DNA of 64,000 nt from Raillietiella orientalis. Taxonomy: Eukaryota. The stretch is taken from contig JAYWIR010000070.1 in NCBI GenBank assembly GCA_036172245.1, positions 372,001-436,000 on the forward strand. The letters are read 5' to 3'. A program made the translations under genes and the position numbers. Positions 20,160 through 64,000 of this stretch are shown one piece after another. Below the pieces are notes generated by a model. That model was not told where the DNA came from. It did no database searches and saw nothing but the letters and a program-made list of their open reading frames with translations. The first letter of the stretch is position 1. Every line of letters begins with the position of its first letter.

Positions 20160-21507
20160 TCAGACTGCCGAGCCGACGGAAACTCAATGAATAAGAAGAA
20201 TGCAACGCTTTCCCGAGGCCTCGCAGAGAGCCTCAGAAAACACGAGCGATTGGGCTGAAGGCGAAAAAGCCTCCTACTGCCACCGTCGTGAACCGAAAGC
20301 CTCGCGTCAAGGCCTTGGCAAACGCCGCCGAATGCGGTCGTTCGCCCAACACCGGAAAATCGCGCCCACGGGCAAAGAACTCCACAACAACCGCCCTATC
20401 GCAGCCAAGGTGCCCCCGGCGCCGACTGCCGCGAGGAAACAGCCGTGACGCCTGCATACCTAGCGCGCGGACGCAGCTCCAGCCGCGGCCAACGAGGAAA
20501 CTGCTAAGGCGAGCAGAAGCGCTACAGCAGCGCCCCTAGAGGCCGCAAAGACAACGAGTGAATCCGTCTATGACGAGGACGTAGCGCCACTATCGTTCGC
20601 CAAGGCACTCGCGTACGCCTGCGCTCAGGCAGCGCTCCAAGAGGCAGCCAGGGCAACGTCGACTACACCCACGGAAGCAGCGCTATCTCAGGAAAGAGAA
20701 GGTAACTGCGATGCGAAGAAAGAAGGCTGGATGAAGGTAAGGAGAAAAAGAAAATGGAACCATCAAAGTCCTCACAGCTCCGCGTCAAGGTGAATGGTCG
20801 CTAAAAACCTGCGAAACCTTCGCAAAAAAAGGCTGTGATCTTTGCCTCCTAGTCAAAGATTGCTACTTCTACTAGCTCTACTACTCCTTGTTGTATGCTA
20901 GAGAGTCGACGGAACGTAGTCCCTCGGGGCTGCTTCTGCCGGCGGGTGGCCCTGCGGTCGACCAGGAGGAACGCGCCACTCTGGAGTTGCCCTTCACGGC
21001 GGAGGAAGTGTCTTCCTCCATAGCGGGCCTCAAGAAGCGTAAGGCGCAAAGTGAGGATGGTCTGCCTGCGGAGTTCTTCCAGTGTTTCGAGGCGGAACTC
21101 ATCCCCCTGGTGCTGAGGCTTTCTCGGCTCATGCGAGAGACGGGCAATGTTTCGCTCAGCAAGGGTGCGTCTCTTGCCGAAAGGCGGAGACATGCGCCAA
21201 TTAAGCAACTGGCGTCCAATCACCTTGGTGAATGCGGACGTCAAGTTGTTCTCCAGGCTCTGGGTCGCACGCCTAGGCAGAATCACTGGATCCGTGGTAA
21301 TTCCGTAGCAATCCTACTCTGTTCCCAGGCGGTCCATGGAGGCGAACCTGTTCTTTGCGCGCACGTGGCTCGAGCTGCAGCGTTGCGAGGCGCACGACAG
21401 CCAGGTAACCGCATCTGCGGCTGCCGAGGCTAGGCGTCGCTGCATTCGGCCTGAGGAAGCGCCGGGTGCCTTGGCGGTCGCGGTCGATCTCCGCAAGGCG
21501 TTAGATT
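20160..21507 (+). mobile_element. Element A: decayed lineage III non-LTR retrotransposon (possible ORF1 relic ~20160-20830; ORF2/RT fragment 20880-21507); outermost host of the nest
   Basis: 20880-21502 aligns to D2 ORF2 (59395-60025: YYSLLYAR..EDGLPAEFFQCF..VDLRKA). The upstream part is A/P/K-rich with an EGWMKV motif like other ORF1s; that part is lower confidence. Confidence 0.8.
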
Positions 21508-23350
21508 TTCACCCGGATTTCGCCGGGGCGTTTATTGAAACAATAAACTTTAACAAAGACGTGCAGTGGCTGGACCACTGCTCCAGCCAAGCACGAAGAA
21601 ACACAGAGCCTTCCGGGTCACCGGTTCGCAGACCGGTACGGTCCACCACGGCAGCAGGGGGAAGGGGGAAAAAACAAAAAACAAAACAAAAAAGAAAAGA
21701 AAAGTTGGGAGGGTAAGGAAAGGGATCACAGTTGCTGGTGGGGCCTTTGCATCCTTTGCAGGATGCCGGCAAGCTCCTTCTGTATTCCTGAATCCAGGTG
21801 GGGCCATCGGGACGCCCTCCTTAGGAACTGGGAGGCTGGCTGGATGGCACCCTGGTCGCGTTGTCCTCCCGTAGCCTTGCTCCAGGCGCTGACGATCCCG
21901 CGTAGGCAGCACAAAGCTGCTAACGAGGCCGCAGGCCGAAGGGCGTCGGCAACGAAGAGGGCTTTCAGAGCGTCCCTGGGGTTGCCGCAGGGGATTCCGA
22001 TGGCCGCGGCAAAGCGGAACCAAAGGGGTCGAAGGGCAACACAATCCACTAGCAGGTGGGGGAGGGACTCCATTCCCCACACCTGACACAATTGGGGTTC
22101 ACCGCTTCCCAGGTCCAGTGGTGTCGGAGGGAGTTGCAGGGGAGTCCCGAGTGCTGCAACAGGAGAGCCAACTCCTGCCATTTTAAAGGGAGGGTGGAGG
22201 TGTTCATAAGTAACGGGGCCACTTCAGACGTTCAATGGGAACGTCGAGCAGCACGACCCAGTGCACCACAACTCTGGAACAAGTGCCGACATTCGGAACT
22301 GGAGATGAAGCTCCAGCCGTTCCAATGTCAGGAGGCCGAGACCACCGTCCCGACGCAGAGCGCACAAGTCCTTTAAGTGGACTCGGGCCCTCCCGTTGCC
22401 CCAAAAAACGATACGAAGGGGGTCCTTCGTCCGCTTTTTTATCCTCTCTGTAGGGGGTCAAACAAAAGGCAGAGGTCGGAGGAGAGGAGCCGCGAACGTG
22501 TTCCAAACCGCGGCCCGTTCAAGCAGGAAAAACTTGCCGCCTCGGAACGGGCCGATCGCCGTCTCTACTTCCTGGAGGCAGCCGGACCATGCTTCCGCAG
22601 GGGAGTAGTCCCCCGACGGCACACCAAGGTACTTGAAGTACCTCACCGTGAGGATCCCCAAACGGACCCAGTCCTGCTGCCTGCCCACGCCGCACCAATT
22701 GGTATGACGGACGACTTCGCCCTGTTCACCGTAAGTACGGTTCCCCGATGCAGCAGGTCGAAGAACTCCTCGACCGTTGAAGCCGGGGTGGACATAGGGA
22801 GCAGCAGCAGAAGGTCGTCCGCGTACGCTGAAACGGCAGGCGTACCGGCACAGTCGTGCGGCAGGTGCGCAGAGTTTCCCTGTACGCTCTCAGTACGAAC
22901 TCAAAGTAGGTACTGAAGAGCAAGGGGCTCAGGCTCTCCCTGCCGTATCCCACGCCGCACCGGCACGCCGCGCACGGTCTGCCCGCTGAAAGAAACGTTG
23001 ATGAGCGCGTCGCGCCAGCAGGAGCGCAGATAGGCCACTAATGAGGCCGGAAAGCCTAAGCGTTCCAGAAGGAGATTCTGGTCGACGCAATCGAATGCTT
23101 TGCGCAAGTCGAGTGCGACCGCAAGGGCTCCCTCCCCCACTCGACCATCTGAACCTTTGCCGGCGCACGCAACGGAATTCCGGCTGCGCACTAAGCTCCT
23201 TTCATGTTGGAGCTCTAGCCAGGTGTAAGCGTGGAACAGGTTCGCCTCCATGCTTCGCCCGGGAACAGCATATGTCTGTTGCGGGCTGATGAAGATGTTT
23301 GCAACCCGTCCCAGACGCTCTGCCTAAGCCTTAGCCAGCAACATGGCGTG
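21508..23350 (-). mobile_element. Element B: lineage II, intact 3' end plus internally deleted ORF2 (RT and C-terminus)
   Basis: LDLRKAFD, YADD, KYLGVP and ESLPHLLVDC motifs. Colinear with E but roughly 0.5 kb shorter. AATAAA-hairpin terminus at 21508-21536. Confidence 0.9.
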
Positions 23351-23351
23351 C

Positions 23352-25502
23352 GGACGTGTTTTTTCCGCGATCCTCTGCGCCTGTTGTAAAGCGTTCCTTT
23401 TCGTTAGTGTTTGTGTGTGGAGCATCTGCGGTGTCCAATGGCAGAAATGCCTGAGGACACCGCAATGGAAGTCGGCAAGGGAGAGGATTGTTCCTCTTTC
23501 CAGCCCATAGAGATGAGGCAACCGCCCCCACGGAGACGAGGCAACCGCCTTCTTGAAAAAAGGGGCAACCGCATTCTTGGATCCTTCCTAGGCAATGACG
23601 AATACCTGGAGCGCCGTGACTACAGCACCATCCCCTGAAGCCATTGCCTAACAGTGTGCCTACCGGGATCAAGGGTATAAACCATCCTTGATTTATAAGG
23701 TAGGCAACCTTTTTTTGGAGAACACCGCTCGTAACCTTGAAAGAGAGTTACAGCGGCTGAATGTCGAAGAGGAAGGCCTGGAAGGTCTCTCCGTGATGAG
23801 TGGGGGCCAGCGGGTGAAGCTGACTTGCAAAGATGCAAGTCTGGCTCAGCGCCTGTTGAACACTTCCATCACGCTGGAAGGCCGAAAGGTCTTCCCTGTA
23901 ACGGAGGATCGCTCTATTGTTGCACACCTAACCTGTGTAACTCTTCTCATGACCAAAGCTGGCGTGCAGGAAGAGTTGAAAAACCATAACACGGTGCACG
24001 CGCTCTGGACCAAGCCGAACGTCTTCCAAACATACGGAAGACTGTTCAGTGGCATGGCTGCAGCTCGTGTGACCGTCCACGAAAACGGTGGGCTGCCCCA
24101 CAAACTCGACGTCGGCAACGAGGTCGTCGACGTCTGGTACGTGGGCAAGCCCAAGTACTGTGGGCAGTGTGATGCAACAGGACACCTGAAAAAACGGTGT
24201 TCTCACATCCAGTGTTTCCACTGCAAGGAGAAGGGCCACCTACGGAAAGTGTGCCCAAAGCGGAAACCTCCAGCGCCCTCTGCCTTGAAAAAAGGTAAGG
24301 GGAAACGCTTGGAGAAAACAAGCAAGCCCAAAGAAGCAAAGGAAAGGCCAAGCAAAAAGCCAGAGTCCGAATGCTCCCAGCAAACGGCGGGCGAGAAAAA
24401 TCCCGACGACGCTGGTTACAGCGAGGACTGGCGGACAGCGAAGCCGAAAAGCAAAAAAATCCGAAAAACCGAAGAACCGACAGCGGAACCCGTGACAACT
24501 CCTTTAAATAGAAGGCAACGCCACGCTTTGCTCCGCGAATGTTCGGTCGCTTTGTAGCGAGTAGAGATCCCCGAGACCTCCACCGGGGGAGATATCCCCC
24601 GCCTCGTTGACGCCGAAGCCGCGATCGCGGAAGGAGAACCCTCTGTGCAAACAGAGGGGGAGCCGAGCGACGCGGTCGCCGCAATCGAGGACGCCGCCTT
24701 CCAACAGGCGGCGGAAGAGCTCGCGGCCGAGCTCGCGGAAAGTGAGAACGGCGCGCGAAAAGCCTTGCCAAGCTCGGCCGCGGCCAGGGCACCTCCAACA
24801 GGTGACCACGAACCGGATGCCGGAAGTGCGTCCTCCTCCGCGGAGGCGCCTCCGAAGAAGACTGGACGGAAGTCCAAGAATCCAAAGATGTGCATCCCAA
24901 GAAAGAAGGAGGGGGACGCACCGGCAGCCGAAGGGGAAGCCGGTAGCGTAGGAACGGAGGGAGGGATTTTCCCACCCTGCGCTACCGAGCAGCTGGCGAC
25001 CCCCATGGAGGAGGGGGAGAAGGTAAGTCATTGCCGCCCACTTCCAAAGGTGGAACCTGCTGAGGAGATAGCCATGGAGGAGGGGGAGCAGACAGTTGAC
25101 AACCGCTCCCCCCTGCCGTCCAACGCAGCCGACGATTCGGCCCCCATGGAAGAGAGGGAGCAGGTGCGTGAAACTCGCCCCCTTCCACCGTTGCGGTCCA
25201 CTGAGCAATCGGCGCCCATGGAGGAGGGAGAACCGGTGCGCGGTGCCCCCATTCCTCCATCTGTCCCGCCCGACCAGGTGGCGGGCGCCCCATTGTCACT
25301 TTCGCAGGAATAACACCAGGGTTCGCCTGTCGCCGCCGATTACGCGTGGCCTGCTGGAACGTAAACGTGCTGCGCGACGACGGCAACAGACGGGACACGG
25401 CCGCCACCCTGCGTGACTTCGACCTGGCGCTCCTGCAGGAGATCCACGTGATCACCGCGCAGAACGCCCAGGAGATCGAGACGATCGCAGGGGGTCAACT
25501 GT
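23352..25502 (+). mobile_element. Element C: lineage I-related, intact 5' end, disrupted ORF1 (23438-25313) and start of APE
   Basis: Starts GGACGTG. Knuckles CGQCDATGHLKKRC and CFHCKEKGHLRKVC, PMEEGE repeats, then WNVN..QEIH. Interrupted at GGQL by D1. Confidence 0.92.
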
Positions 25503-27588
25503 TTATCACCCGGGTGCGCCGGAGCGTTTATTGTAAACTATCGGGGGACAGGGTTCATGGACAAAGGAGAAAACAAGAGACGAAGGGGGTGGGATCCCCG
25601 ACACGCAGGTCGGTATGCCGAAAGTCCGTAACGGGAGGGAAGGGACCACAAATACACTACTATAAAAAAATTAAATAAAAATATGGAAGGCAGGGGACAG
25701 GGGTCTTTATCGAGTCCGTTCCTTCCTTTCAAAACCGGCGATGGATGCCGGCGATCTCTCTCCTAACGCCCTGTGGAAGATGGCCCACTCGGCAGCCGAC
25801 GACATGATTGTGCTGGCTAATCCGGTGAATGACGAAGGATGGCCAGCTTCTCCAACCCTCGGTGGGCCTTGTCGATGGCGCGGGTGCAACACACGGTTGC
25901 AACGACAGCACCCAAGACAGGCCGCCTGGCGAGAAGAAGCGGCGCATGAAGTCCCTCGCGGTGTCCCCCTGGTGCAGGAGAGCTCATGCCAGCCCCCGTC
26001 AAAGTCCAAGAAGGGCACCGCAGTCTAGGAGCAGGTCAGCGAGCGTTTCCACTTTCTCGCACCGCTTACAGTTTGGGGAGACAACTCCCCCGGAAACACG
26101 GTTCGTCCGCTGGTTGGAGTGAAAACCCCAATGCACCAGCATGAAGACGTCCTGCTTTCACGAAAGGGGGTACACAGAAGCGTACAAACAGGAGGGAGGG
26201 ACCACAAGTTCTTCGGGGGGCACACTTAAGTGTTCACTCCACCGAAGGGGTCCCTTCGGAACGTGGCGAGGCGTGGCGGCGTCTGCCAGCTCGCAAGTCC
26301 TCTAGCCGCCAATAGGTCGTGTTGTTCCTGCAATGGTGCAGGCGACCTCCCATCTCGCCGGTTCGCAGCTGTCATCTCTTGCCCTGAGGGCTGACAGTAC
26401 GTCGGCGAGCAGCGTGACGGCCAGGCGGGTCCACTTCTCCTGGCTGTTGCACACTTCATCCACCGTGCAGTACGGGGAGAGTTGAGCGCAACGGAGTTCC
26501 AGGAGGGAGACATCCTGGTACTTTGCCCAGCCATGCAACGGTTCCTGCCGCCAGGCTTGAAAGTTCGTTGGGCGGCAGGAGATCCATTCCTAGGCTTCCA
26601 GGAGCCGGTAGAGCGGTTTCAAGGAAAAACCAAAGCTTCTCGTGGCGCGCTCCGCGTGCGGCCGCAGCTACAGAAGTCCATCGCTGCCTGTGCAGCGCCG
26701 CAGAAGCAGGCGCGCGGGTGCGCACCACGGGGTGGAACAAAGGTTGGCGCACAGGGCCAACATCCGAAGCTGCACCTGCAGCTCGATTCTCTCCAGCGTC
26801 AGGATGCCTAAGCCAGCATCCCGACGCGGAGCCGCCAAGTCTTTGAGGCAGATCCTGGACCTCGCAGGTCCCCACAGAGCGTTCCTCAACAGGCTGTGCG
26901 CCTGGAGCTTAGCCGATTAGAGGGTCGGGCAAACAAGAAGCAGGAGGCGCAACAGGGGGGCAACGAAGGTGTTCCATATCGTGGCCCGCACCGGCAGGAC
27001 GAACCTGCCATGGTGGAACGGGCTCAGGGAATTCGGAGCCTTCCGAAGGCAATCCGACCACACTTCCACTGGGCTGATGATCCCCAGCGGAACGCCCAGA
27101 TATTGGGTGGTCGAAGCGTTTGGGATCCCCAGGCGGATCCAGTCAGACTGCCCCTCCCACGCCGCAACAATAGGTACGCCCACGCTCTTGCTCCGGTTTA
27201 AACTCAAGCCCGCTCCCCGGCGAATCAGCTCGAAGAAATCCTCAAGAATGATTGCCGGGGTGGTGATATGTAAGAGCAAAAGGAGGTCGTCAGCATAGGC
27301 TGCCACGAACTGCGTTCCTGGACAAGAGCTCGGCAGGGTGGCCAGCGTCAGCCTGTTCGCTATCAGCACCAACTCAAAGAAGATGCTGAAAAGCAACGGG
27401 CTTAAGCTGTCGCCCTGCCTAATGCCCCGCCGCACCGGCACGCCGTACACGTGGCAGCCGCTCAAAGAGATGGAGATGAGCGCGTAAAGCCAGCAAGCGC
27501 GCAAATACGCCACGAGGTGCACCAAGAGACCAAGACGTTCCAGGAGCTCCAGGAGGAGATCCTGATTTACGCAGTCCAGCGCCTTGCG
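25503..27588 (-). mobile_element. Element D1: lineage III, 3' end and RT/C-terminal half of ORF2 (frameshifted)
   Basis: Closely similar to D2 60015-62106 including the 3'UTR; RQGDSLSP and YADD motifs. Confidence 0.93.
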
Positions 27589-27606
27589 TGCTCCAGGGTA
27601 GACGTG
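27571..27606 (+). promoter_or_regulatory. Putative Inr (GCAGTC, in target DNA) plus DPE (AGACGTG, in element H)
   Basis: A at 27573 and motif at 27600 give +1/+28 spacing. Confidence 0.55.
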
Positions 27607-28786
27607 TTTTCTCGGTGCTCCTCGTGCCAGGAAGTCTCCCCCAGTGCAAGCGTCGTGTGGTTCGGTGGTCAATCAGGCAGCGATGCCTGACGCGACCACC
27701 AGGGATGGCAAGGGGGCAGCGGCAACTCCGCCCCCAGAGGCGATGGAGAGCCAGGGGACGGCGGCAACGTCGCCCCTGGAGGCGATGGAGGTGGGGGCAT
27801 GCGCCCCCACAAAATCGGTCCCCGCTGCAGCGCGGGCGTGGAGCGCCCTTGTGTCGGCGCCATCGCCTGCAGCCGCGACGGAATTGTCGGCCTATGTAGA
27901 GGAGGGGTACAACCCCTCATTGTTCTACAAGGTAGGCAATCTCTATTCTTCAGAGAGCGCGCGCGCCTTTTCGAAGGGCATGCGCGCTGTTGATGTGAAA
28001 GAGGAGGAGCTCAGCGCTATGACCATCTGCAGCGGGGGTCAGTACGTTGAGGTCATCTGCAAGCATGCAGAGCTGGCCCAACGACTGCTCAAAACCCCTG
28101 TTGTGATGGGAACGCGCAGGCTCCTCCCCACTACGGCGGACCGCAGCATGGTGGTCCACCTGTTAGGTGTTACCGCGCGGAAGCGCAAGGAACAGGTTCG
28201 CGCCGCGTTGGAGGAATACGGAACGGTCCACGCGCAGTGGAAGAAAGTTAGTCCTTTCGAGGACTACACGGGGCTGCAACACGGCCTCACTGCTGCGCGC
28301 GTGAACGTTCGGGAGGGCTGCACTCTTCCCCACAAACTGGTGGTGGAAGGCGAAACCGTCGACCTCTGGTATGTGGGGAAGCCGAAATACTGTGGCTTCT
28401 GCAATACGTCGGGCCACCTCAAAAAGAGGTGTCCCAATGTGCAGTGCCAAGTATGCGGCACAATGGGCCACACGAGGGAGGTGTGCCCAAAAGCAGCAGT
28501 GCGGGTGGTTTCCAAGAGAAACCTTAAAAAACGCGCCCGGCTTCTGCAGAAAAGGCTGGCGGCGAAAGCTGCCGCGAAGGCTGTGCCACCCGCGCCCAAG
28601 GCCCAGGCCGCACCCGAGACCTCGGCGAACAACGCCGAACAAGTCGAGAAAACAAGCCAGGAGCCTGGGTGGCAGGTGGCTACGGCCAAAAAATCAAAGA
28701 AGGAGAGGAGGATGGAGAAAAAGCTCGCGTACCGCCAGAAAAAACAGCAGGCAAGCGAGCAAATTAAAGAATGCAGCGTTGTCGTT
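27589..28786 (+). mobile_element. Element H part 1: lineage II, intact 5' end and ORF1 N-terminal part (ATG 27683)
   Basis: AGACGTG at 27600. ORF1 is homologous to F ORF1 with two CCHC knuckles and is cut at ECSVVV by J. Confidence 0.92.
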
Positions 28787-34323: not shown

Positions 34324-34534
34324 GTGCACCGTCGTCGTCGAGCGTATTCCCGACGCTGCGAAAAAGAACTCGCCGCTACCGACGACAATCCCTCTGTTGA
34401 CTCTGTCAACAGCGAGGAGAGCGAGCCGGCGGCGGCGTCCGTCATCGACACCACCATCGATGACGTAGCCTTCGCGCGAGCCTCGGAGGAGCTGGCAGCC
34501 TCGTTGCAGCCAGCCCCCTCCGCGGCCAGTAGGA
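34324..34534 (+). mobile_element. Element H part 2: continuation of lineage II ORF1 after J
   Basis: Resumes CTVVVERIP..AAASVIDTTIDDVAFARASEELAASLQP, homologous to F ORF1 51180-51390. Confidence 0.88.
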
Positions 34535-34620
34535 GGACGTGTTTTTCCTTCACTCCCCAAAGAGTAGTAGGAAAGCGCTTTTTCTTCTGTGTGGTGTTTT
34601 GTGTACATCGTCGGTGTCCA

Positions 34621-39300: not shown

Positions 39301-39967
39301 GAAGCCGAGGTGGCAAGTCACCTGCCAGATCGCAGGCAGGGAGAAGATGTTAAGCAGCTGGACCACAGGAGAACTGGCGGACGCCACGACCCCGAGCGTC
39401 CAGCCGCGTGGATTAATGAGATGGGGCGAGCTGCTCGCCATCCCTACGGATGTGCTGAAGTGGCCCCCGGTACTAAAGGAATCCAGGATCCTGCCCCTTA
39501 AGTGGCAAGAGTCGGCGTTGCTATTGCTGCACTGGGGTTTACCCTGCAACGCACGCCGCTTCCACTGGACAAGGGGAGCTGTGGACCCTGAGTGTGTCAG
39601 GTGCGGAGAGCGGGAATCGCTCTCCCACCTTATTGTGGACTGTGCTGCCATCCGACCCCTCTGGGAACGGTTCGGGGCGACCCTAGGGCTCCCTACGAGC
39701 AGCACCCCCAGAGACGTTCTTCGGCCCCTCTTCGTGAAGGACGCACTGCAGCCAGCCGCAGCCATCGCAGCCTTGTGCTGTGTCCGTGGCATCGTGGCTG
39801 CATGGAGCGACGCCAATAACGAAGGAGTGGGTCCACACGCGAGGGATGTCATCCCATACGCCCAACGCTTCATGCGGAGAGCTGCCGGATGGCCCCAACT
39901 GGGGAATATACGGACGGACCTCGAGGGCTTCCTTCAACGGATGGGCCCTCCTCACAGCGCTCAGTGA
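36371..39967 (+). pseudogene. a1 ORF2: APE endonuclease - reverse transcriptase - CCHC, ~1199 codons in one frame with two premature stops (37172, 37301)
   Basis: WNVNGL, QEIH, YAP, GDFN, IDH, SDH; KAPGEDG, WRPIT, DLHKAFD, RQGDSLSP, YADD, KYLG, GGLGL; CVRCGERESLSHLIVDC. Confidence 0.93.
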
Positions 39968-40179: not shown

Positions 40180-40197
40180 CCTCCACGGCCAACTGGA

Positions 40198-42830: not shown

Positions 42831-42831
42831 A

Positions 42832-50000: not shown

Positions 50001-50034
50001 TAAAAAGGTCCCAGTCCTGGAGATTCCGGAGCGT
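47013..50034 (-). mobile_element. Element a3: lineage I, 3' end and ORF2 downstream of APE (disrupted)
   Basis: Near-identical to a1 37157-40179 in reverse orientation. Confidence 0.94.
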
Positions 50035-50046
50035 CGAGCGGACGTG
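50011..50046 (+). promoter_or_regulatory. Putative Inr (CCAGTC, in target DNA) plus DPE (GGACGTG, in element F) core promoter
   Basis: A at 50013 and motif at 50040 give +1/+28 spacing, matching the Drosophila Inr TCAKTY / DPE RGWCGTG geometry. Function inferred. Confidence 0.6.
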
Positions 50047-52647: not shown

Positions 52648-55600
52648 TGTCCACCTGGGTACTCCCGTGGCGTTTATTGTATAAAACTCTACAAGAAAAC
52701 GTGGTACAAGGCCCCACTAACGGCCACACAACACCGGACCTGCCGGGACGCCGGGACGCAGCCCAGCGTGACGCTCTTCGCCAGTGGAGGGGGATGGGGA
52801 TCAAAACAAAATTAAAAAATGAAAATAAAGGAAAACAAAAAGAGTTTGGAGGGAGGGGAAAGAATCACGTTCCACTTAGAGGAGGGTCCAACCCTCGCAG
52901 GATGCCCTCCAGGTCCATCTTCATGCTTCCCAGATGGGGCCATCTCGCTGCTCTCCGCATGAAGCAGACCGCATACGGGATGACATCCCTCACGTTGGCA
53001 TCCACTTCTTCGTCGCGAATGTCGCTCCATGCCGCCACGATGCCCCGGATATAGCAGAGGGCTGGGAGGGCTGCGGCAGGCTGCAGGGCGTCACGCACGA
53101 AGAGGGGCCGAAGAACGTCTCTGGGCGCTCTGCTTGTTGGGAGCCCGAAGGTCGTCCCGAACCGTTCCCACAGGGGACGGAGGGCAGCACAGTCAACTAG
53201 TAGGTGGGGAAGCGATTTGTGCTCTCCACACCTTGCACACTCAGGCCTTACACTCCCCCGCATCCAGTGGAAGCGGCGCGCGTTGCAGGGTAGACCCCAG
53301 TGCAACAGTAGCAGCCCCGACTCTTGCCACTTCAGGGGGAGAAGCCTGGATCCTATCAGATTGGGGGCCACTTGAGGTCATCCGTCGGGATGCCGAGCAG
53401 CTCGCCCCATCGACGAAGTCCACGAGGAAGGGTACTCGGGGTCGTGGCATCCGCCAGTTCTCCCATGGTCCAACCGCTCATCTTCTTCTCCTTGCCTGCA
53501 ATTCGGCAGGAGACTTGCCACTTTGGCTTGCGGCTGCTTGTTAAAGCCCTTCGGAGAAAGGGCAGGGTCGAAGCTAGAGGGGTGATCTCCGCCCACGTGC
53601 TCCTGGCGGGACACTCCAGAGTAGTCCGCAGTGTGCAGCGGGCGTTGGGGCCGAATCGCAGGCGGTTCCAGTCCGGGGAAGTCTGGAGGTTCAACTTGGC
53701 CCACGTCGCAACTGATTCCTCCAGCCAGGCGAAGAAGTTGGCGGGGCCGCATACCGTCCAGCCGTTGTTTCTGACCAGGGCTTCCATGCGCCCAAGAAAA
53801 GGCCACATCTTCTCACCTTCCTGCCGGAGCACAGGAGGTACGACGCGAGTCCTTGCGTCCTGGACACACGGCTGGCGAGGATTCGGGCCGGAATGCACCA
53901 AGGGGTGCTCCATGACTTTGCTGCGATGGCGAGGGTGCGCCATCGCAGCTGTATTTCCAGGCGCTTTAGCGTCAGGAGGCCGAGACCGCCGTCCCGACGA
54001 GGAGCGCATAAATCATCCAGAGGCACACGTGGCCTCCCGCTGCCCCAGAGGGCGATGCGGAGTATGTCTTTTGTCCTCTTTTTAATGTCACGGTGGACGG
54101 GGCACACAAAAAGCAGGGAACGGAGGATGGAAGCCGCGAAGGCGTTCCACACCGCGGCCCGTTCCGGCAGAAGGAACTTGCATTCCAGGAACGGGCCGAT
54201 TGCCAACTCTACCTTCTCGAGACGACCTGACCAGGCTTCTGCGAGGCAGAAGTCCCCCAACGGGACACCCAGGTACTTCAGGTACCTGGCCGTTGGGATC
54301 CCCAAGCGGATCCAGTCAGGCCGTCCGACCCACGTCGCACCCACCGGTACGACCGACGACTTCGCCTTGTTTACCCGCAGTCCAGTCCCACGACTTAGCA
54401 GATCGAAGAAATCCTCGACTGCGGCTTCCGAGGCGGACATGGGCAGCATGAGCAGAAGATCGACGGCGTATGCTGCAACGGCAAGCGTGCCGGGGCACGA
54501 GCTGGGCAGGGCAGCCAAAGTCACCCTGTACGCTCTCAGCACCAACTCAAAGTAGGTGCTGAAGAGCAGGGGACTGAGGCTATCGCCCTGCCGTATGCCC
54601 CGCCGCACCTGCACGCCGAACACCTGTTGGCTGGAAAAGACGATGTTGACAATGGCATTGCGCCAGCATGAGCGCAGGTAGGAGAGAACGGAGCTTGGGA
54701 AGCCCATGCGACCCTGGAGCTCCAACAGTAGCTCCAGGTCTACGCAGTCGAACGCCTTGTGGAGATCGACCGCGATCGCTAGGGCTCCCTTCCCAGCCCG
54801 GGTATCTATTCCCAGCCCACCTGGCGGTTCCAAAGTGGGGTTGCCAATCTTTCCCCCTGTGTCGTTCAGGCAGCGCTGCACATGGAACCATGTGCTCTCG
54901 AAGAACAGGTTGGCATCCATACTTCGCCCGGGAACAGCGTACGTCTGCTCCGGGCTAATTATGGAGTCTGCCACCTGTCCTAGACGCAAAGCCCACAGTC
55001 CAGCGATCAGCTTGGCGTCCGTATTCACGATTGTGATCGGACGCCAATTGCCCAAGAATCTCAGGTCTCCTCCCTTCGGGAGGAGCCTCACACGGGCTGA
55101 CCGAAACGAGGCGGGAACGTCGCCTTCGTCTCGGATCAGCCCGGTCAACTGAAGCACCAGGGGTGCCAGCTCTGCCGCGAAACATTGAAAGAATTCCGCA
55201 GGCAGGCCGTCTTACCCTGGCGCCTTTCGCCTCTTGAGCCTTTTAAAACCGGCGAGAATTTCACCGGTAGAAAAAGGCTCGTCGAGGCTGATCTTCTCCT
55301 CTTCCCCTATTGCCGGGGCTCCATCCGAAAGCAGGAGCCGCGAGGCGTTCCGCTCTGGGGGTGCCCTAGCGTAGAAAGAGGAGTAATAACGTCGCACGAG
55401 GTGCCTGATCGCGGGTGGTGCGGATCGCTCCCGGCCCTGGTCGTCCAGCAAGCTGGCCGACCCGGATTGCCAGGCTTGGCGTTCGGCCCCGGCTCGATAT
55501 TCCGCGAGGCGACGGACATTCGGGGTCCTCTCGTACCGGCGGGCCTGTAGATAAGCCCGATGGTTCCGAGCCCCCTCCCCGAATCCGGGGGGCAGGCGGT

Positions 55601-56282
55601 GCAGGGGAAACTCCTCGCAGAACTCGCGGAACGAGGCCTTGAAGAGGTCCCAGTCTTGGAGACTGCGGAGGGTGACACCTCTTAGGATTTCGCGAAGGTG
55701 TTCTTTCGCACCTGTGAGCTGCGTCCAGTCCCCAGGCAGCCGCCACGCCCTGGACGGGGGTCCTTTGTCGCGCGGGCAAACCTCGGCGATGATCCTGGAA
55801 TGGTTCGACAGCGTCGACGCAACTTTTCCCCGTTTGCAAACCCGCGAGCACAGGTCGACATCCAGGAAGAAGTGGTCGATGCTGCGGTCCATTCCCTCCG
55901 CGTCTGCCAACAAGTTGCGCGTGCGCATGGCAGCGCAAAACTCGTTGGCCGTGCGTTCTTGTGCTTCGGGCTCACCTGACAGCAGACGGAGATTGAAGTC
56001 TCCAGCTATCAGGTGTGCCTTCCGCACATTCGTGTCGGCCAGCCAATCGCGCTTCAAGGTTTCCAGCAGCCTGGTACGGTCGCTGTATCCCCCTTTTCCG
56101 CTCGGGGCGTACACGTTCGTGACGATCAATTCGATCGAGTCGGACCAGCTGAGAATCAGCTGACCGACCCTACCGTCGTTATCGAAGCGTACGCCCTTCA
56201 CGGCAGCGTCGATGGCCGGCTTGACGAAGAACGCGACCCAGCAGGTGTTGCGGGCGCCGCATCGCCAATACAGTCGACCCCC
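52648..56282 (-). mobile_element. Element G, 3' part: lineage I subfamily, ORF2 from GGRLYW to the 3' end
   Basis: Homologous to a1 ORF2 and 3'UTR; frameshifted. Confidence 0.93.
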
Positions 56283-56372
56283 TCCATTGTTCGGACGTGC
56301 ATTCTTGCGCTCCGTCTTTGGTGCTTCTTTGCGGTTGTTCCTTTTGGGTGCGGTGGGATTTTTCATTTGGAA

Positions 56373-58310
56373 ATGAAGCCAGTGCCCGCAGAAATGGAGG
56401 TGGAGGAATCCCCCTGCGCCGCAGGACCTTCTTCGGGAGGAGCGGAAGCCTCCACCGATCGTCCCTCGCCTCCAGCGAGAAGTTTTGCCGCCGTTGCTAA
56501 GGCAGCGGCGGCTCACGGAGCCCCACCCGACGAGGCAGAGCTGCGGGCGTACGCCGCGAGCGGCTACAACCCCCCTCTGGCCTACAAGGTCAGTGCCGCG
56601 TACCGGGATGGGACGGGCAACCAGCTCTGGAGCGAGCTAGAACGCGTAGGGGTCCGAGAGGACGATCTCCTGGCAATTATGCCAGTGAGCGCGGTAGGCC
56701 ATTGGGAGGTGCACTGCAAGGATGCAGCCCTCGTCCAGCGCCTACTGCGAACCCCCCTGAACATCAGGGGTAAGGAGGTCGTCCCCTCGGCCCTGGATCA
56801 ATCGTTCGTGGTCCAGCTCTCGGGAATTAGGCCGAGAATAACGGACCGCGACATCATTGTTGCACTCGAGGCGTTCGCCACAGTGCACGCGATGTGGAGG
56901 CGCGCGAACCCGATCGATAAAGTCCCGCGCCTCTCCTGCGGACTTGCGACGGCGCGCGTCACCATGGACGACCGGAGGCTCATGCCTTCGCAGATCCTCC
57001 TCGGTGACGTCGTCGTCTATCTCCGGTTTGCCGGGCAAACCCCCGCTTGCGGCAACTGCGGGAAGGAGGGCCACCGTCCGCGGAAGTGCCCAACACGCAG
57101 TTGCCGATACTGTAAGCTGCTCGGCCACTCGATTAACGAGTGCGCCGAGCTGAAACGAAAGAGGAGGGCGAGAAACCCCCCCGCAACATCGCCGTCCGCG
57201 CCGACTCCATCCGCCCCGTCGTCGGGGAAGAAATCAGGCGCGAACGAGCATTCTCAGCGGAGAAGTGAAAAGTCCGCTTGCGCGGGCGATTCTTGGAGCA
57301 ATGCTCCACAAAAACCCGCGCGAAAGGACAAGGAGCTCCTCCAGGCTGCTTCAGTAAAGCCCCGAGCGACCCAGCCCGCCGATAACATCGGGCAGGCTGC
57401 AAAAATAGCACCGCCGCTTCCGTCCGCTCTCGCTCCGGAGCGAAATAGCGGTGGCACGCCCGGGAAGACCACCGGAGCGTCGAAAAAGGGGTCGCGCGCC
57501 CCTTTGCCCGCGACAGGCAAGCCGGCCACGGCGGGCCGAACGCCAGCAAAGGCTGAAAAGCCTCGCGCGACACCCGAGAATCCCGCCACTGTGCCCGCAC
57601 CTCCCGGTAAGGAGGTGCAGAAGGCAGACGTGGCGAAGGAGACACTGGCCTCAGTCGCCGTATCCGAGGCCTTGGAAAGGATGCGAAGGACCCTGGAAGC
57701 CCTCGCGCCCAACCGGGGCAAACAGGAAGGCGGCGAGGATGGCTGGACCTTCGTCGGGGGAAAGAAGGAGCGCAAACCGCGCGATCCTTCCCACTTCCCG
57801 ATCCAAAAGGTAGGCGGGGTGAAGAGGCAACCCCGCGCGCCCAGAAAGGCGCAAGGACAAGCCTCTGCTGCCGCCGCGCGCGCCGCCGCAAACACCCGCG
57901 GCGAGAGGGGAGCTGCCGAAGCCGTGACCCCGAAAGGGGGATCGGCGACGAAGGCACCCTCGAAGAGTGCTGGACCAGCTCCGGGCTGCCAGCAAACAAA
58001 GAGGCAGGCGAAACGCCCGCCGCCGCGCGCGCGCAATTCGGACTCCGAGGTGGAGTCCGAGGGCAGCGCTAAGGCTCGCCAAGCCCCGGTCAAGGCCAGG
58101 GCTGCGCGCAAGCCAAAACTTGCCAGGCAAGAGCCTGATGCCGGGAACGGTTCCCGATGCTCCTCGGAGCCCGAGGCAATGGTCCTCGACTCGACCAAGC
58201 CGGCCGCGAGCGGCGCGGCGGGGACAGGAAGCGCTTGCGCTACCTCATCCGCCGTGCTCCCGGCTGATGCCTCGCCGGACGGGGCGAGGAACGCACCTCC
58301 ATGTCCGTAG
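56373..58310 (+). CDS. D2 ORF1 (645 aa) gag-like protein
   Basis: Open from ATG 56373; knuckles CGNCGKEGHRPRKC and CRYCKLLGHSINEC; long basic low-complexity tail. Confidence 0.9.
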   Translation: MKPVPAEMEVEESPCAAGPSSGGAEASTDRPSPPARSFAAVAKAAAAHGAPPDEAELRAYAASGYNPPLAYKVSAAYRDGTGNQLWSELERVGVREDDLLAIMPVSAVGHWEVHCKDAALVQRLLRTPLNIRGKEVVPSALDQSFVVQLSGIRPRITDRDIIVALEAFATVHAMWRRANPIDKVPRLSCGLATARVTMDDRRLMPSQILLGDVVVYLRFAGQTPACGNCGKEGHRPRKCPTRSCRYCKLLGHSINECAELKRKRRARNPPATSPSAPTPSAPSSGKKSGANEHSQRRSEKSACAGDSWSNAPQKPARKDKELLQAASVKPRATQPADNIGQAAKIAPPLPSALAPERNSGGTPGKTTGASKKGSRAPLPATGKPATAGRTPAKAEKPRATPENPATVPAPPGKEVQKADVAKETLASVAVSEALERMRRTLEALAPNRGKQEGGEDGWTFVGGKKERKPRDPSHFPIQKVGGVKRQPRAPRKAQGQASAAAARAAANTRGERGAAEAVTPKGGSATKAPSKSAGPAPGCQQTKRQAKRPPPRARNSDSEVESEGSAKARQAPVKARAARKPKLARQEPDAGNGSRCSSEPEAMVLDSTKPAASGAAGTGSACATSSAVLPADASPDGARNAPPCP

Positions 58311-58315
58311 CAGCA

Positions 58316-61300
58316 ATGCGCGGTCTCGCTTCTTCCCGTCGCGTCCGAGTGGCCTGTTGGAACGTCAACGGGCTGCAGGACAACGAGAAGAGGCGATTGG
58401 TTGCCAACGTCTTGCGCGACTTCGATCTGGCCCTGCTGCAGGAGATTCACGCACTCTCCGAGCAGCAAGCGGCCGATCTGCAAGTTCGCGCAGGCGGGAC
58501 GCTCCATTGGAGGTCAGGCTCCCAGAATACCTGCGGAGTCGCATTCCTTGTCCGGGGCAGGGTGGCGGGAGCGGTGCGGAGCGTTTGTTTCGACGAGGAA
58601 GGTCGTGTGGGCCAACTTGTTCTCAAGTGGTCCGAATCGATCAACCTTGTCGTCACGAACGTGTACGCGCCGAGCGGCTCCGCGCGTCACACCGAGAAAC
58701 TGGAGTTTTTCGAGAGACTGCGCGACCGCTGGCTCAGCAACTCCGGCCCCGACGTGGCTCACCTCGTAGCCGGGGACTTCAACGTCCACGCGCTATCGGA
58801 GGAGTCTCACCGTCGCCGGGAGAAACGGCTGGTGAACGAGGTGTGCGCGTCGGTGCACGCCTCGAATTTGCTGGCCGACGATCCCGGAATGCGTGCTTTG
58901 CCGGACCATGTGTTCCTCGACGATCACCTGCATTGCCGGGTGGGTCGAAGAGGTCCCGTGCCGTCCGAGCTTTCCGACCACTACAGGCTGGAGTTTGAGC
59001 TACTCCCGTCTGGCAAGGGCCCACCGACGAACGTCTGGAGGTTGCCGGCCGACTGGTTGAGAAATCCGGTGGCTGCGGAGCACCTCCGCCAGCATCTTCG
59101 GACCTTTGCCGTTCGAGAGCTCGTGGACTGGGACGATCTGAAAAGATCGGTCCGCGAGTTCTGCAGCCGGTTCCCCTTGCGCCTGCTTCACCGTGGCTTC
59201 GAAGAAGGCGTGGCCAACAGCAGAGAGTTTCTGCAGGCCCGCCAATTCTTCCGATGCCCGGACGTCCGGTACCTTGCGGAGTACAAGGCCAAGGCCGAGC
59301 GCCAGGTCTAGCAGTCAGGAGTAGCTTGTCTGCTCGACGACCAGGGCCTGGAGTGCTCGGGCGCGGCCGAAGTTCGCCGCCTCCTAAAGCGCTATTACTC
59401 CTTGTTGTACGCTAGGAAGCCGACGGAACGCAGTCTCTCGGAGCTGCTTCTGCCGGCGGATTCCCCGGCGGTCGACGAGGAGGAACGCGCCACTCTTGAC
59501 TTGCCCTTCACGGCGGAAGAAGTGTCTTCCGCCATAGCGGGCCTCAAGAAGCGCAAGGCGCCAGGTGAGGATGGTCTGCCTGCGGAGTTCTTCCAGTGCT
59601 TCGCGGCGGAACTCATCCCTTTGGTACTGAGGCTTTCTGCGCTGATGCGAGAGACGGGCAATGTCCCGGCCTCGTTTCGCTCAGCAAGGGTGCGTCTGTT
59701 GCCGAAAGGCGGAGACATGCGCCATTGAAGCAACTGGCGTCCCATCACCTTGGTGAATGCGGACGTCAAGTTGTTCTCCAGGCTGTGGGTCGCGCGCCTG
59801 GGCAGGATCGCTGGATCCGTGGTAAGTCCGGAGCAGTCTTACGCTGTTCCCGGGCGGTCCATGGAGGCGAACCTGTTCTTCGCGCGCACGTGGCTCGAAC
59901 TGCAACGCTGCGTGGCGCACGACAGCCAGGCAACCGCGTCTGCGGCTGCCGAGGCTAGGCGTAGCTGCATTCGGCCTGGGGAAGCGCCGGGTGCCTTGGC
60001 GGTCGCGGTCGATCTCCGCAAGGCGTTCGATTGCGTAAATCAGGATCTCCTGCTGGAGCTCCTGGAACGCCTCGGTCTCCCGGTGCACCTCGTGGCGTAT
60101 TTGCGCGCTTGCTGGCGCCACGCGCTCATTTCCATCTCTTTTAGCGGCTGCCACGTGTACGGCGTGCCGGTGCGGCGGGACATCAGGCAGGGCGACAGCT
60201 TAAGCCCGTTGCTCTTCAGCATCTTCTTTGAGTTGGTGCTGAGGGCGTACAGGCTGACGCTGGCCAACCTGCCGAGCTCTTGTCCAGGAACGCCGTCCGT
60301 GGCGGCCTATGCTGACGACCTGCTCCTCCTCTTACCCATGACCACCCCGGCATCCAGTCTCGAGGAGTTCTTCGAGCTGATTCGCCGGGGAGCGGGCATG
60401 AGCGTAAACCGGAGCAAGAGCGTGGTCGTACCTATTGGTGCGGCGTGGGAGGGGCAGTCCGACTGGATCCGCCTGGGGATCCCGACCGCTTCCTCCGTGC
60501 AATATCTGGGCGCTTCGCTGGGGAACATCAGCCCAATGGAAGTGTGGTCGGACTGCCTTCGGAAGGCTTCGAATGCCCTGAGCCCGTTCCACCATGGCAG
60601 GTTCGTCCTGCCGGAGCGGGCCACGATATGGAACACATTCGTTGCCCCTCTCTTGCGCCCCCAGCTTTTTGTTTGCCCGCCCCCCTACTCGGCCAAGCTC
60701 CAGGCGCACAGCCTGTTAAGGAACGCTCTTTGGGGACCTGCGAGGTCCAGGATCCGCCTCAAAGACTTGGCGGCTCCGCGTCGGGATGCTGGCTTAGGCA
60801 TCCTGACGCTGGAGAGAATCGAGCTGCAGGTGCAGCTTCGGATGTTGGCCCTGTGCGCCAACCTTTGGTCCACTCCGTGGTGCGCTCCCGCGCGCCTGCT
60901 TCTGCGGCGCTGCACAGGCAGCGATGGACTTCTGTCGCTGCGGCCGCACACGGAGCGCGCCACGAGAAGCTTCGGTTCCCCCTTGAAACCGCTGTATCGG
61001 CTCCTGGAAGCCCAGGGATGGATCTCCTGCCGCCCAACGAACTTTCAAGCCTGGCGGCAGGAACCGTTGCATGGCTGGGCAAAGCACCAGGATGTTTCCC
61101 TCCTGGAACTCCGTTGCGCTCACCTCTCCCCGTATTGCACGGTGGATGAGGTGTGCAACAGCCAGGAGAAGTGGACCCGCCTGGCCGTCACCCCCCTCGA
61201 AGACGCACTGTCAGCCCTCAGGGCAAGAGATGACAGTTGCGAACCGGCGAGATGGGAGGTCGCCTGCACCATCGCAGGAACAACGCGACCTATTGGCGGC

Positions 61301-61878
61301 TGGAAGACTTGCGAGCTGGCGGACGCCGCCACGCCTCGCCACGTTCCGAAGGGACTCCTTCGGTGGAGCGAACACTTAAGTGTGCCCCCCGAAGAACTTG
61401 TGGTCCCTCCCTCTTGTCTGAACACTTCTGTGTTCCCCCTTTCGTGGAAGCAGGATGTGATTATGCTGGTGCATTGGGGTTTTCACTCCAACCAGCGCAC
61501 GAACCTTGTTTCCGGGGGAGTCGTCTCCCCAAACTGTAAGCGGTGCGGGGAAGTGGAAACGCTCTCGCACCTGCTCCTGGACTGTGGTGCCCTTCTAGGA
61601 CTCTGGCGGAGGCTGGCCTCAGCTCTCCTGCACCAGGGGGACACCGCGAGGGAGTTGATGCGCCGCTTCTTCACGCCAGGCGGCCTGTCATTGGGTGCTG
61701 TCGTTGCAACCGTGTGTTGCACCCGCGCCATCGCAAGGCCCACCGAGAGTTGGAGAAGCTGGCCATCCTTCGTCAGCCCACCGGATTAGCCAGCGCAAAC
61801 ATGTCGTCGGCTGCCCAGTGGGCCCATCTGCCACAGGGCGTAAGGAGAGAGATCGCCGGCATCCATCGCCGGTTTTGA
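58316..61878 (+). pseudogene. D2 ORF2: APE-RT-CCHC with stops at 59311 and 59728 and a late frameshift
   Basis: WNVNGL, QEIH, GDFN, SDH, DLRKAFD, YADD, CKRCGEVETLSHLLLDC. Confidence 0.92.
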
Positions 61879-62106
61879 AAGGAAGGAACGGATTTACCAA
61901 AGACCCCTGTCCCCTGCCCTCCAGATTTTTCTTTTATTTTTTTATATAGTAGTGTGTTTGTGGTCCCTTCCCTCCCGTTCCGGACTTTCGGCATACCGAC
62001 CTGCGTGTCGGGGATCCCACCCCCTTCGTCTCTTGTTTTCCCCTTTGTCCGGGAACCCTGTTCCCGGATAGTTTATAATAAACGCCCCGGCGCACCCGGG
62101 TGACAA

Positions 62107-64000
62107 ACAGTCGACCCCCCGCGATCGCCTCGATCTCCTGGACGTCTGCCGAGGTGATCACGTGGATCTCCTGCAGCAGGGCCAGGTCGAAGTCACGCAG
62201 GGTGTCGGCCGTATCTCGTCTGTTGCCGTCGTCGCGCAGCCCGTTGACGTTCCAACTGGCCACGCGGATTCGACGGCGACAGGCGAGCCCAGGTGTTATT
62301 CCTGGGAAATCGGCTGTGCGGCGTCCGCCATCTGTTGGGGCGGGACGCTAGGTGGAGGAGGAGGGACAGGTGCCTCTAGCACCTGGTCACCCTATTCCAT
62401 CGGTGACGGCGCGTCGGGCGGGTCACCCTCCGGTGGGGTCGCGCCTACCTGCTGGCCCTTCTCCATAGGGGTGGGCTCCTCAGGGTCCGCGACGACAGGG
62501 GGGATTTCGACCCCCTGCTCACCCTCCTTCATGGGGGTGTCGTGCTCGACGGCTTCCGCGCGTGGGAGCTCCCCCTCCGGGATTCCCACGCTGCCGGCGA
62601 CTTCCTGCTTCTCCTCCTCGCTCGTGGAGGGGAGGCGCTTCCTCTGCTTTTGGGAGTTGCGTCCCGTCTTCCGGGTGGGTGCCTCCGAGGAGGAGGATGC
62701 ACTTCCGGCCCCCAGTTCTAACTCACCTGCGGGGGCCTTCTTTACTGGAGCCGGGCTTCGCACGGCCTTGCGCGAGGGGTTCTCACGCTCAGCCAGCGTG
62801 GCTGCGAGCTCCTCCGCCGCCTTCGCGAAGGCGGCGTCCTCGCCGGCGGCGAGCGCGTCGCGCGTCTTACCCTCTGTGCAAACAGAGGGTTCGACGTCGC
62901 GAACCTCGGGCGCGGCGGAAAAGGCGAGGGGAGGCTCGTCGCTCCGGGTGGCAGCCTCGGGAACGCTGATGCGCTCCAGTGCTACCGAGCACTCGCGGAG
63001 AGTTTGAGATCGCGGACCAGGTTTTTTCGCCTTCGCGACCGTGTTTTTCTCCGCCTTTTCTTGTGAACCCTTTTTGGGTTCTTTTGTGGCCTTTACCAGC
63101 TTCCATCCTTCTTCCTCGCCCGCGTCTTTCGCTGTTTTTTCCGCCGCCGCCTGGGTTGGAGGAGGAGGAGAAGGCTGCTGGGGCCGGCCATTCTCGCGAT
63201 GAGGTCTTTCGACCTTATTCATCTTTTTCGCCTGTGCCTTTTTAACAGCAGGTGGCACAGGGGTGGGGCGTTTAGGGCACACATGACGGACGTGTCCCTT
63301 TTCCCCGCACAAGTGGCACTCGATATTCGGGCACCGCATGCGCACATGCCGTACTGCATCGCAGTAGCCACAATAGCGGGGTTTTCCCACGTACCAGAGG
63401 TCGACGGGCTTCTTCCCGACCTCCAGTTTGTGGGGTAACCCAGCACCCTCGTTCACAGTGACACGCGCTGCTGCCTGGCCACCAAAGAGGCTGTTATAGC
63501 TATCAAAAATGGTTGGCTTAGGCCACAGCGCGTGCACATCTCCGTATTTCCTCTATTCCGCGTTCACCGCAGAGCGCGTCATGCGGTTCGTGATCCCCGT
63601 TAGATGGACCACTACGGAGCGGTCCATGCTAACGGATAGGATCTTTCGGCCAGCCACATTCAGCGGGGTGTTGATGAGGCGCTGCGCTAGGGCTACGTCT
63701 TTGCAGACGACCTCCACGCGTTGCCCCCCGCTGAGTACGGCGAGGCCGTCAAGATCCTCCTCACGCACGGGGAATTCCTGTAGTGCCTTGCTAAAGGCAC
63801 GCGCGGTGCGACCGTCGAACAGGTTTCCCACCTTATAAACCAGGGATGGTTTATATCCGGAGGCCCTGTAGGCCGCTTGCTCAGCCAAGGTTTCCGCGCT
63901 CGGCGCGGCGACCATGGCGCTCCAGCTCCTCGTCTTGGGCGACGAGGGCGATTCCGGGGCGGGTGCCCCTGATTCTGTAGGTCGTGGGAGGGGGCTAGCC
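62107..64000 (-). mobile_element. Element G, 5' part: ORF1 (ends 62296, disrupted) and APE start; 5' end just beyond the window
   Basis: Homologous to a1/a2 ORF1; two CCHC knuckles; TAACA ORF junction. Confidence 0.93.

Follow-up and report, generated by a model that had tools for sequence, protein, structure and literature searches.

The DNA analyzed here is a 64,000-nucleotide (nt) window that contains no N, and the subject of this report is an array of long interspersed nuclear elements (LINEs) of the L1 superfamily that occupies positions 20866 to 64000. The array consists of 13 copies on both strands from at least four diverged lineages, which are lodged one inside another. A preliminary description had proposed a nest about 11 levels deep, and the nest is real and has about that depth. 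We mapped it by blastn against two full-length copies that served as rulers, H (34529-40179; 5651 nt) and D2 (56283-62106; 5824 nt), and by self-comparison, with the boundaries refined from the junction sequences. A single LINE superfamily makes up the whole array, and neither another transposon class nor unique DNA was found over 43 kb. Another copy is matched by blastn at 39,924 of the 43,135 bases, and blastn or tblastn with the elements' own proteins together cover 42,170 bases. The seven uncovered stretches of at least 30 nt all lie inside elements, in 5' leaders, an internal piece of D1 and part of open reading frame (ORF) 1 of D2. The stretch had been described as element DNA from position 20160 onward, which held for every segment from 20866 to 64000 and failed for 20160-20865, where no element was matched.

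The outermost copy, A (20866-21505, plus strand; level 1), is a D-lineage fragment that corresponds to D2 positions ~3099-3750, is 90% identical to D2 and ends with the target CGCAAGGCGTTAGA. It is cut by B (21506-23345, minus strand; level 2), an E-lineage copy with an intact 3' end at 21506 and many frame breaks. The internal deletion that had been ascribed to B was confirmed, as ~500 bp present in E are absent from it. Next comes a1 (23346-25502, plus strand; level 3), a distant member of the a clade that extends from its 5' end (+/-5 nt) to H position 2044, colinear with H, and terminates in a D target, ACAGTTGACCCCC (25490-25502). Level 4 is Dx (25503-27588, minus strand), a D-lineage copy 92% identical to D2 whose 3' end lies at 25503. 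It reaches as far as D2 position 3735, where its target CGCAAGGCGCTGGA abuts the 5' end of C; the 3' flank of Dx is the same as that of D2. C belongs to the F clade and forms level 5. Its first part (27589-28783, plus strand) runs from the 5' end, with the 5' motif, into ORF1 and matches F 50244-51085 by blastn. A 42-bp unit is repeated 1.9 times in C ORF1 (27711-27790).

C is interrupted by the full-length D-clade copy D1 (28784-34329, minus strand), which has many frame breaks, and resumes for 199 bp (34330-34528, plus strand; matching F 51181-51369) that end with a target copy, CCTCCGCGGCCA (34517-34528). Behind it stand the full-length a-lineage copy H on the plus strand, a second 12-bp copy of the C target, CCTCCACGGCCA (40180-40191), and a2 (40192-42831, plus strand; level 6), an a-lineage copy 94.7% identical to H that reaches from its 5' end to H position 2655 and ends with CGCTCCGGAATCTCCA. 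E (42832-47012, minus strand; level 7) has its 3' end at 42832 and is cut in ORF1, at the site CCTCCAAGGCTGG (47000-47012), by a3 (47013-50033, minus strand; level 8). The 3' end of a3 is at 47013, and the copy, which is 95% identical to H, reaches H position 2641; read in its own sense on the minus strand, a3 starts with the target CGCTCCGGAATCTCCA. F (50034-52647, plus strand; level 9) comprises ~2.6 kb from its 5' end and contains an empty a-lineage target at 51375-51387. G is an a-clade copy 80% identical to H (level 10). Its first part (52648-56282, minus strand) extends from the 3' end to H position 2032, and after the full-length D-lineage copy D2 (plus strand; level 11) it continues (62107-64000, minus strand) from H position 2044 to 170 and runs off the window.

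The open chain therefore reads A > B > a1 > Dx > C > a2 > E > a3 > F > G > D2, and D1 and H stand outside it because they close within C. From left to right, the strands of the 13 copies are + - + - + - + + - - + - +. The chain given in the preliminary description had the right depth of 11 and needed revision in its members, since it counted D1 and H as open levels and lacked a1 and Dx, which are open. Two labels of that description, J and its own a1, could not be matched to segments of our map.

That each segment begins at an intact terminus and is cut by the next had also been proposed, and the element ends bear this out, as all eight 3' ends and all seven visible 5' ends are conserved. The 3' ends share AATAAACG, followed by a hairpin (5-bp stem, CCCGG/CCGGG) and then a few bases of which the last is A. 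No 3' end (0 of 8) carries a poly(A) tail; the ends close with one to four A residues ~18-25 nt after AATAAA, directly past the hairpin. Within the 5-bp stem we found no compensatory changes, so the conservation is one of sequence and not of covariation. The visible 5' ends (a1, C, D1, H, a2, F and D2) have GACGTG 7-17 nt from the junction, in six cases as GGACGTG and in C as TAGACGTG, and by this placement all seven are full-length. The left edge of A, at D2 position ~3099, is the only candidate 5' truncation in the array.

The three closed inserts are bordered by target-site duplications, of 13 bp for D2 (ACAGTCGACCCCC at 56270-56282 and 62107-62119), 12 bp with one mismatch for H and ~7 bp for D1 (CGACGAC/CGACAAC). 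As had been reported, the host resumes past a closed insert: G runs on across D2 at the expected element coordinate, from 2032 to 2044 on the scale of H, and past D1 the 199 bp of C are colinear with F. H is preceded by CCTCCGCGGCCA and followed by CCTCCACGGCCA, with the 5' end of a2 directly behind the second copy. This tandem arrangement of H, target and a2 arose either because one site was hit twice or through unequal exchange between the duplications. A peptide that had been pointed out in E, GEKPRNERCYLQAR, is indeed encoded there (45699-45740, minus strand), directly past the point where F is cut.

The insertion points themselves recur. A junction can be seen for 12 insertions, and nine of these lie at four fixed sites of 12-16 bp, each in the coding sequence of another lineage. 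The sites were used two, two, two and three times, and the orientation is constant at each of them, antisense at sites 1 to 3 and sense at site 4. At site 1, the 16-bp sequence CGCTCCGGAATCTCCA ends a2 at the 3' end of E, and the same 16 bases begin a3 at the 5' end of F. By this identity, the insertions of E into a2 and of F into a3 represent opposite flanks of one kind of event, in which 16 bp were duplicated. The site is empty in H, with one mismatch, and in G, with three. Site 2 was used by B in A and by C in Dx, with CGCAAGGCGyTnGA in common. A ends with CGCAAGGCGTTAGA at the 3' end of B, the corresponding sequence of Dx at the 5' end of C is CGCAAGGCGCTGGA (the D-lineage target used by B and C is also written CGCAAGGCG...), and the site, which encodes the reverse transcriptase (RT) motif VDLRKAFD, is empty in D2.

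Site 3 received D2 in G and Dx in a1, which share the 3' flank ACAGTyGACCCCC, and it is empty in H and a2 with one mismatch. The two hosts, G and a1, are only ~48% identical in ORF1 and 63% identical in their 5' halves at the nucleotide level. Since the inserts are 92% identical while ORF1 of the hosts is only ~48% identical, the sequences clearly point to two separate events. Site 4 is a homologous ORF1 position with CCTCCrmGGC that was used by H and a2 in C and by a3 in E; F has it empty as CCCCCAAGGCTGG. Altogether, empty homologous sites were found in H, G, D2, D1, a2 and F. The junctions of D1 in C, a1 in B and G in F lie outside the four sites. The same 14-16-bp target is found whether the left or the right junction is the visible one, as expected for duplications made at insertion. 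By reasoning from ~22 pairs of hosts of the same clade and ~11,400 position-and-orientation states, we estimate that ~0.002 coincident pairs would be expected by chance, compared with the six observed.

The coding capacity of the elements places them in the L1 superfamily. ORF2 encodes an apurinic/apyrimidinic endonuclease (APE)-type domain (Exo_endo_phos, PF03372; expectation value (E) = 2e-17 in D2 and 6e-14 in H) upstream of the RT (RVT_1, PF00078; E=4e-22 in H and 4e-20 in D2), with a weak zf-RVT match downstream of the RT and a zinc-finger-like C-terminal region. ORF1 is separate from ORF2. A CCHC knuckle in ORF1 is a feature of many non-mammalian L1s, and zf-CCHC matches fell below the cut-off of 20.8 bits in ORF1 of H (E=1e-3, 19.5 bits) and of a1 (18.7 bits) and were absent from ORF1 of D2. 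The best relatives of solved structure are human LINE-1 ORF2p (E=4e-42) and L1-EN (1e-7), with R2 proteins at 1e-12 to 1e-15. By these scores, which measure likeness to solved structures, the elements are nearer to L1 ORF2p than to R2. The lineages differ in their internal divergence. H, a2 and a3 are ~95% identical, with G at ~80% and a1 at ~62% to them; D2, Dx and A are 90-92% identical, with D1 at 75-79%; E and B are 83% identical in the RT region; and F and C are 64% identical in the 5' half and 55% identical in ORF1 at the amino acid level.

Public data hold few relatives of ORF2. Among 1.84 billion representative proteins, only three stand out, at 67% identity over 619 amino acids (aa), 70% over 132 aa and 37% in a turtle, and all others show at most ~37% identity over the matched stretches. 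The closest relatives in the database contain RVT_1, Exo_endo_phos and zf-RVT, and in the Protein Atlas ORF2 falls only in generic L1 ORF2 clusters. The turtle protein, gene model P0040 (1555 aa; 37% identity, E=1e-119), is the next closest named relative of ORF2; it has three separate RVT_1 stretches along with unrelated domains and may be a gene model drawn across several LINE fragments. A metagenome scan with the conserved 3' motif returned 37 loci, none of which has protein or nucleotide similarity to the elements, and these are chance matches.

The array is set off sharply from the DNA to its left. GC content is 34-52% in the first 20 kb and ~60% from ~20.2 kb to the end of the window, and the ratio of observed to expected CpG rises at the same point from 0.6-0.8 to an undepleted 0.9-1.0. 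No element of this kind had been recognized in the first 20 kb, and this stands, as tblastn with the element proteins gave no match left of 20897 and none starting left of 20866, and only 94 bases of the flank match anything in the window. The only similarity found within the 20-kb flank is a pair of 48-nt inverted repeats (3198-3245 and 18621-18666) that are 87.5% identical. In the interval 20160-20865 (57% GC, A-skewed), blastn, blastx, tblastn, profile hidden Markov models and local alignment against shuffled sequences detected no significant similarity to any element; three short tblastx matches (E values of 5e-4 to 5e-3) were regarded as noise. Lineages hardly resemble one another at their 5' ends, and the interval may be ordinary DNA or belong to an element that has diverged very far. 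Because it matches no element, the demonstrable array starts at 20866.

The only long reading frame of the flank (9572-10381, plus strand; 269 codons) lies in an AT-rich part with ~35% GC. Its residues 54-115 match an ostracod protein annotated as 'Protein SPT2 homolog' at 47% identity (E=3.4e-5, database-wide), which is its sole match, and the two share a run of 16 residues, RPMTAKEKEEYLRERA. The frame probably represents a single exon of a chromatin gene of the SPT2 type, ~10 kb from the edge of the array, and because this single exon matches an ostracod protein, the host is probably an animal. The turtle origin of the next closest named ORF2 relative points the same way. No Pfam domain was matched among 21 flank ORFs, and the Protein Atlas gave nothing useful for the flank ORF. 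Rfam, transfer RNA (tRNA) and tandem-repeat scans of the window found no ribosomal RNA (rRNA), tRNA, Rfam family or telomere-type repeat.

The copies are in varying states of decay. H ORF1 is open for 565 aa from stop to stop. Neither ORF2 of H (36320-39970; 1215 codons) nor that of D2 (58268-61792; 1173 codons) has a frameshift, although both contain two premature stops. In both, one of the stops is TAG and the other TGA, and one of those in H falls in the empty E/F target site, where CAG has become TAG. In a2 and D2 the endonuclease reading frame is uninterrupted; frameshifts are present in B, Dx, D1, E, a3 and G; the extent of ORF breakage is not monotonic with depth in the nest. Divergence amounts to 5.1% between H and a2, 5.0% between H and a3, 7.5% between D2 and Dx and 8.8% between D2 and A. 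With D1 as an outgroup, the outer copy Dx has 83 private changes compared with 40 in the inner D2 (p=1e-4). In the comparison of B with E, the counts are 81 and 63, respectively. These counts are partly in line with the outer copies being older. E and F are mosaic over 51375-52647 of F and 45737-47012 of E, with identities of 85-92% at 51375-51560, 88-100% at 52445-52647 and 50-75% between, a pattern which suggests that lineages in the array have exchanged sequence by gene conversion or recombination.

What process could have produced such a structure? We consider it probable that positions 20866-64000 are the left flank and core of an L1-superfamily LINE nest that grew by insertion at recurrent sites. 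The nest would have been built by successive target-primed insertions from at least four lineages, the order of which is deduced from what interrupts what. Elements of the D group would insert antisense into the endonuclease-coding part of a-clade copies; E, B, F and C would insert antisense either just after the endonuclease region of an a copy or into the RT motif VDLRKAFD of a D copy; and a elements would insert in sense into ORF1 of E, F and C. Each insertion would break the host copy and bring new targets with it, so that the array would expand from within. That every new copy offers a fresh target to another lineage was already part of the preliminary description, and the base-exact recurrence of sites in nine of 12 insertions, which that description did not list, supports it.

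Mechanistically, the insertions may have proceeded by target-primed reverse transcription begun by the element's own APE endonuclease, with duplications of 7-16 bp. The conserved hairpin after AATAAA and the lack of A-tails raise the possibility that the RT recognizes the 3' end of its own transcript, a mode of recognition known as the 'stringent' type. As for the choice of site, the simplest idea is that the elements' own endonucleases have long recognition sequences, as in Tx1L. Alternatively, insertion may be guided by a read-through RNA that contains the flank, which is possible because E/B and F/C each use two unlike targets and no shared nick consensus was seen.

If the nest was formed in this way, the right-hand halves of 10 open elements should lie downstream of the window and would span ~27 kb if nothing else has inserted there. 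The remainder of F would start with a EKPRNERCYLQAR-like peptide, as in E. The list of downstream remainders drawn up earlier holds in part, as H and D1 drop out because they are closed, and a1 and Dx have to be added.

A bolder version of the idea, which we put forward as tentative and somewhat doubtful, is that the lineages form a closed 'ecosystem' in which each lives only by inserting at one exact site in a gene of another. If that were so, every jump would kill a rival copy and plant new landing sites, and the family would be confined to self-growing nests, with the genes of the host spared; such nests could seed centromere-like or silencing clusters. Site choice might then be inherited, for example through pairing of read-through RNA with the old flank, which would explain why the sister copies E and B, and likewise F and C, have different sites.

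Several observations weigh against growth by recurrent insertion. The sister pairs E/B and F/C are each found at two different targets, with no shared motif found, and no common nick-site consensus was seen across the eight 3' flanks. Inspection by eye showed neither a shared target-site motif nor pairing between element 3' ends and targets. A perfect target has remained empty in D2, as has a target with one mismatch in G. All copies are defective, none has an intact ORF2, and there is no sign of current activity. The relative ages are also not uniformly as expected, in that A and D2 have 19 private changes each and the inner a3, with 2.65% private changes per site, looks no younger than the outer a2 with 2.27%. 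Finally, the whole case for the nest comes from a single locus, with none of the 37 metagenomic loci usable as a relative.

The main rival to recurrent insertion is that the matching junctions descend from a few ancestral ones that were copied by ectopic recombination, through segmental duplication, inversion or gene conversion. Composite pieces do match one another in inverted or direct orientation, as in the alignment of 25253-27588 with 62359-60017 at 91.5% identity, which spans the junction of Dx and a1. The E/F mosaic, with its patches of 88-100% identity, indicates that conversion or recombination acts in the array, and neither E/F nor B/C shows the same side of the junction in both members. 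In addition, the similarity of a1 to G is 80-93% over the 250 nt beside the D insert and drops to 50-65% further off; however, H shares this patch with a1 at 77-83% and with G at 87-95%, and it thus appears to be largely a conserved coding region. Copying of junctions is further at odds with the fact that the hosts of D2 and Dx are different lineages, and E and F, which are 76% identical over a shared 1.27 kb, are not halves of one element. An inversion that related A/B to Dx/C would need breakpoints exactly at element ends plus extra deletions, and the H-target-a2 tandem fits repeated insertion at one site. On balance we judge junction copying unlikely. A related reading in which a2 and a3 are halves of one element, separated by inversion or twin priming, was rejected, as the 3' end of a3 lies at the same ORF1 site as H, the overlap of E and F shows that they are not halves of one insert either, and the order of sense and antisense pieces is the reverse of that in a twin-priming product.

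It is also conceivable, if improbable, that the nest is one-sided, its right-hand halves having been partly or wholly deleted or rearranged to leave a stack of truncated pieces. Only three of the 13 copies are seen to close, B carries its internal deletion of ~500 bp, and A starts abruptly at D2 position ~3099 beside DNA that matches nothing. Nonetheless, every insert able to close within the window does so (D1, H and D2), with the host back at the right coordinate, and all junctions lie exactly at element ends and recurrent targets rather than at arbitrary breakpoints. The defective state of all copies and the use of both strands would suit an ordinary transposon graveyard, such as heterochromatin or a PIWI-interacting RNA (piRNA)-type cluster in which a random pile-up is tolerated, and nested transposon clusters are described as common (bioRxiv 10.64898/2026.09.17.752431). 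Such a pile-up is disfavored by the recurrent sites and is very unlikely, given a single LINE superfamily over 43 kb with no other transposon class or unique DNA, insertion points that recur to the base and 5' ends that are full-length in seven of seven cases. A faulty assembly, in which repeat copies were wrongly joined, might be suspected from the similarity among H, a2 and a3 (95%) and among D2, Dx and A (90-92%), but the joins lie at biological ends with target duplications and not in shared sequence, the neighbors at each join come from different lineages (60-75% identity) that assemblers do not confuse, and the sequence contains no N, so we hold this to be very unlikely. An array that grew by addition at its end, as at a telomere, was ruled out by the alternating strands, and there is no telomere-type tandem repeat.

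Should the organization seen at this locus prove to be genome-wide, it would offer a mechanism by which a domain made only of transposons, possibly a centromere or a silencing locus, arises and expands beside ordinary genes. It would also supply related APE endonucleases that differ naturally in their 12-16-bp targets, in which the evolution of LINE target specificity could be followed, and a clear case of competition combined with dependence between transposon lineages.

The closest parallel to nested growth is found in the Zepp and ZeppL elements of green algae. Zepp/ZeppL elements are L1-type LINEs that occur almost only in nested clusters, where new copies insert into existing ones, a pattern that is seen here within the confines of the window. 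The Zepp cluster of Coccomyxa subellipsoidea C-169 is reported to have a GC content of 61% compared with 53% (PMC3446292), and the local GC peak here (~60% versus 34-52%) is similar. Zepp and ZeppL clusters are described as candidate centromeres (PMC8226300, PMC9940879). However, Zepp arrays are said to consist mostly of 3' ends that result from frequent 5' truncation (PMC8226300, citing Higashiyama 1997), whereas all seven visible 5' ends in the present array are full-length. Likewise, a single ZeppL family is described in Chlamydomonas (PMC9940879), whereas at least four lineages take turns at fixed sites here. The GC contrast and the nesting had raised the identification of the window as a Zepp cluster of Coccomyxa, which was dropped in view of the SPT2 exon, the AATAAA signals and the full-length 5' ends; the flank contains an animal-type exon, and the array is therefore probably not an algal Zepp cluster, even though its way of working is similar. 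No labeled Zepp or ZeppL sequence was returned by the database searches.

Other known systems share particular aspects of the array. Rows of site-specific or telomeric LINEs, such as R1 and R2 in ribosomal DNA (rDNA), TRAS and SART, and HeT-A, TART and TAHRE of Drosophila, likewise use repeated sequence as a safe target, and their tandem copies from one site used twice resemble H and a2. The present array differs in that it has no rRNA or telomere repeat, its orientations alternate and its targets are other LINEs. The 'transposon-state' centromeres of plants, animals and fungi are formed by one centromere-seeking family that inserts into itself on both strands, with mean depths of two to three layers and the deepest mean nesting at 2.86 +/- 0.69 layers (bioRxiv 10.64898/2026.09.17.752431). 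These are mostly long terminal repeat (LTR) elements that lack base-exact sites, whereas the present array consists of LINEs in ~11 layers.

Transposons that target other transposons are known (PMC6719617), and among them Tx1L, an L1-superfamily LINE of Xenopus, bears on the question of site choice. Tx1L inserts at one site in the DNA transposon Tx1D and owes its specificity to its own endonuclease (PMC1950540, PMC6719617). Tx1L and the elements described here are both APE-type LINEs with a fixed insertion site and orientation inside another mobile element. Tx1L has one target in an unrelated DNA transposon, whereas targeting in the present array would be mutual and directed at the coding sequences of sister LINEs, and therefore nests could grow without limit. 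In the full-text literature covered, we found no description of reciprocal site-specific nesting; the original Zepp papers and most subscription papers lie outside that coverage and may hold some of these features. What appears to be new is the mutual, base-exact targeting among sister lineages, together with full-length insertion, the depth of nesting and the probable animal host. The window thus appears to combine two phenomena that are each already known, the nested LINE clusters of Zepp and ZeppL and the targeting of another transposon by a LINE such as Tx1L.

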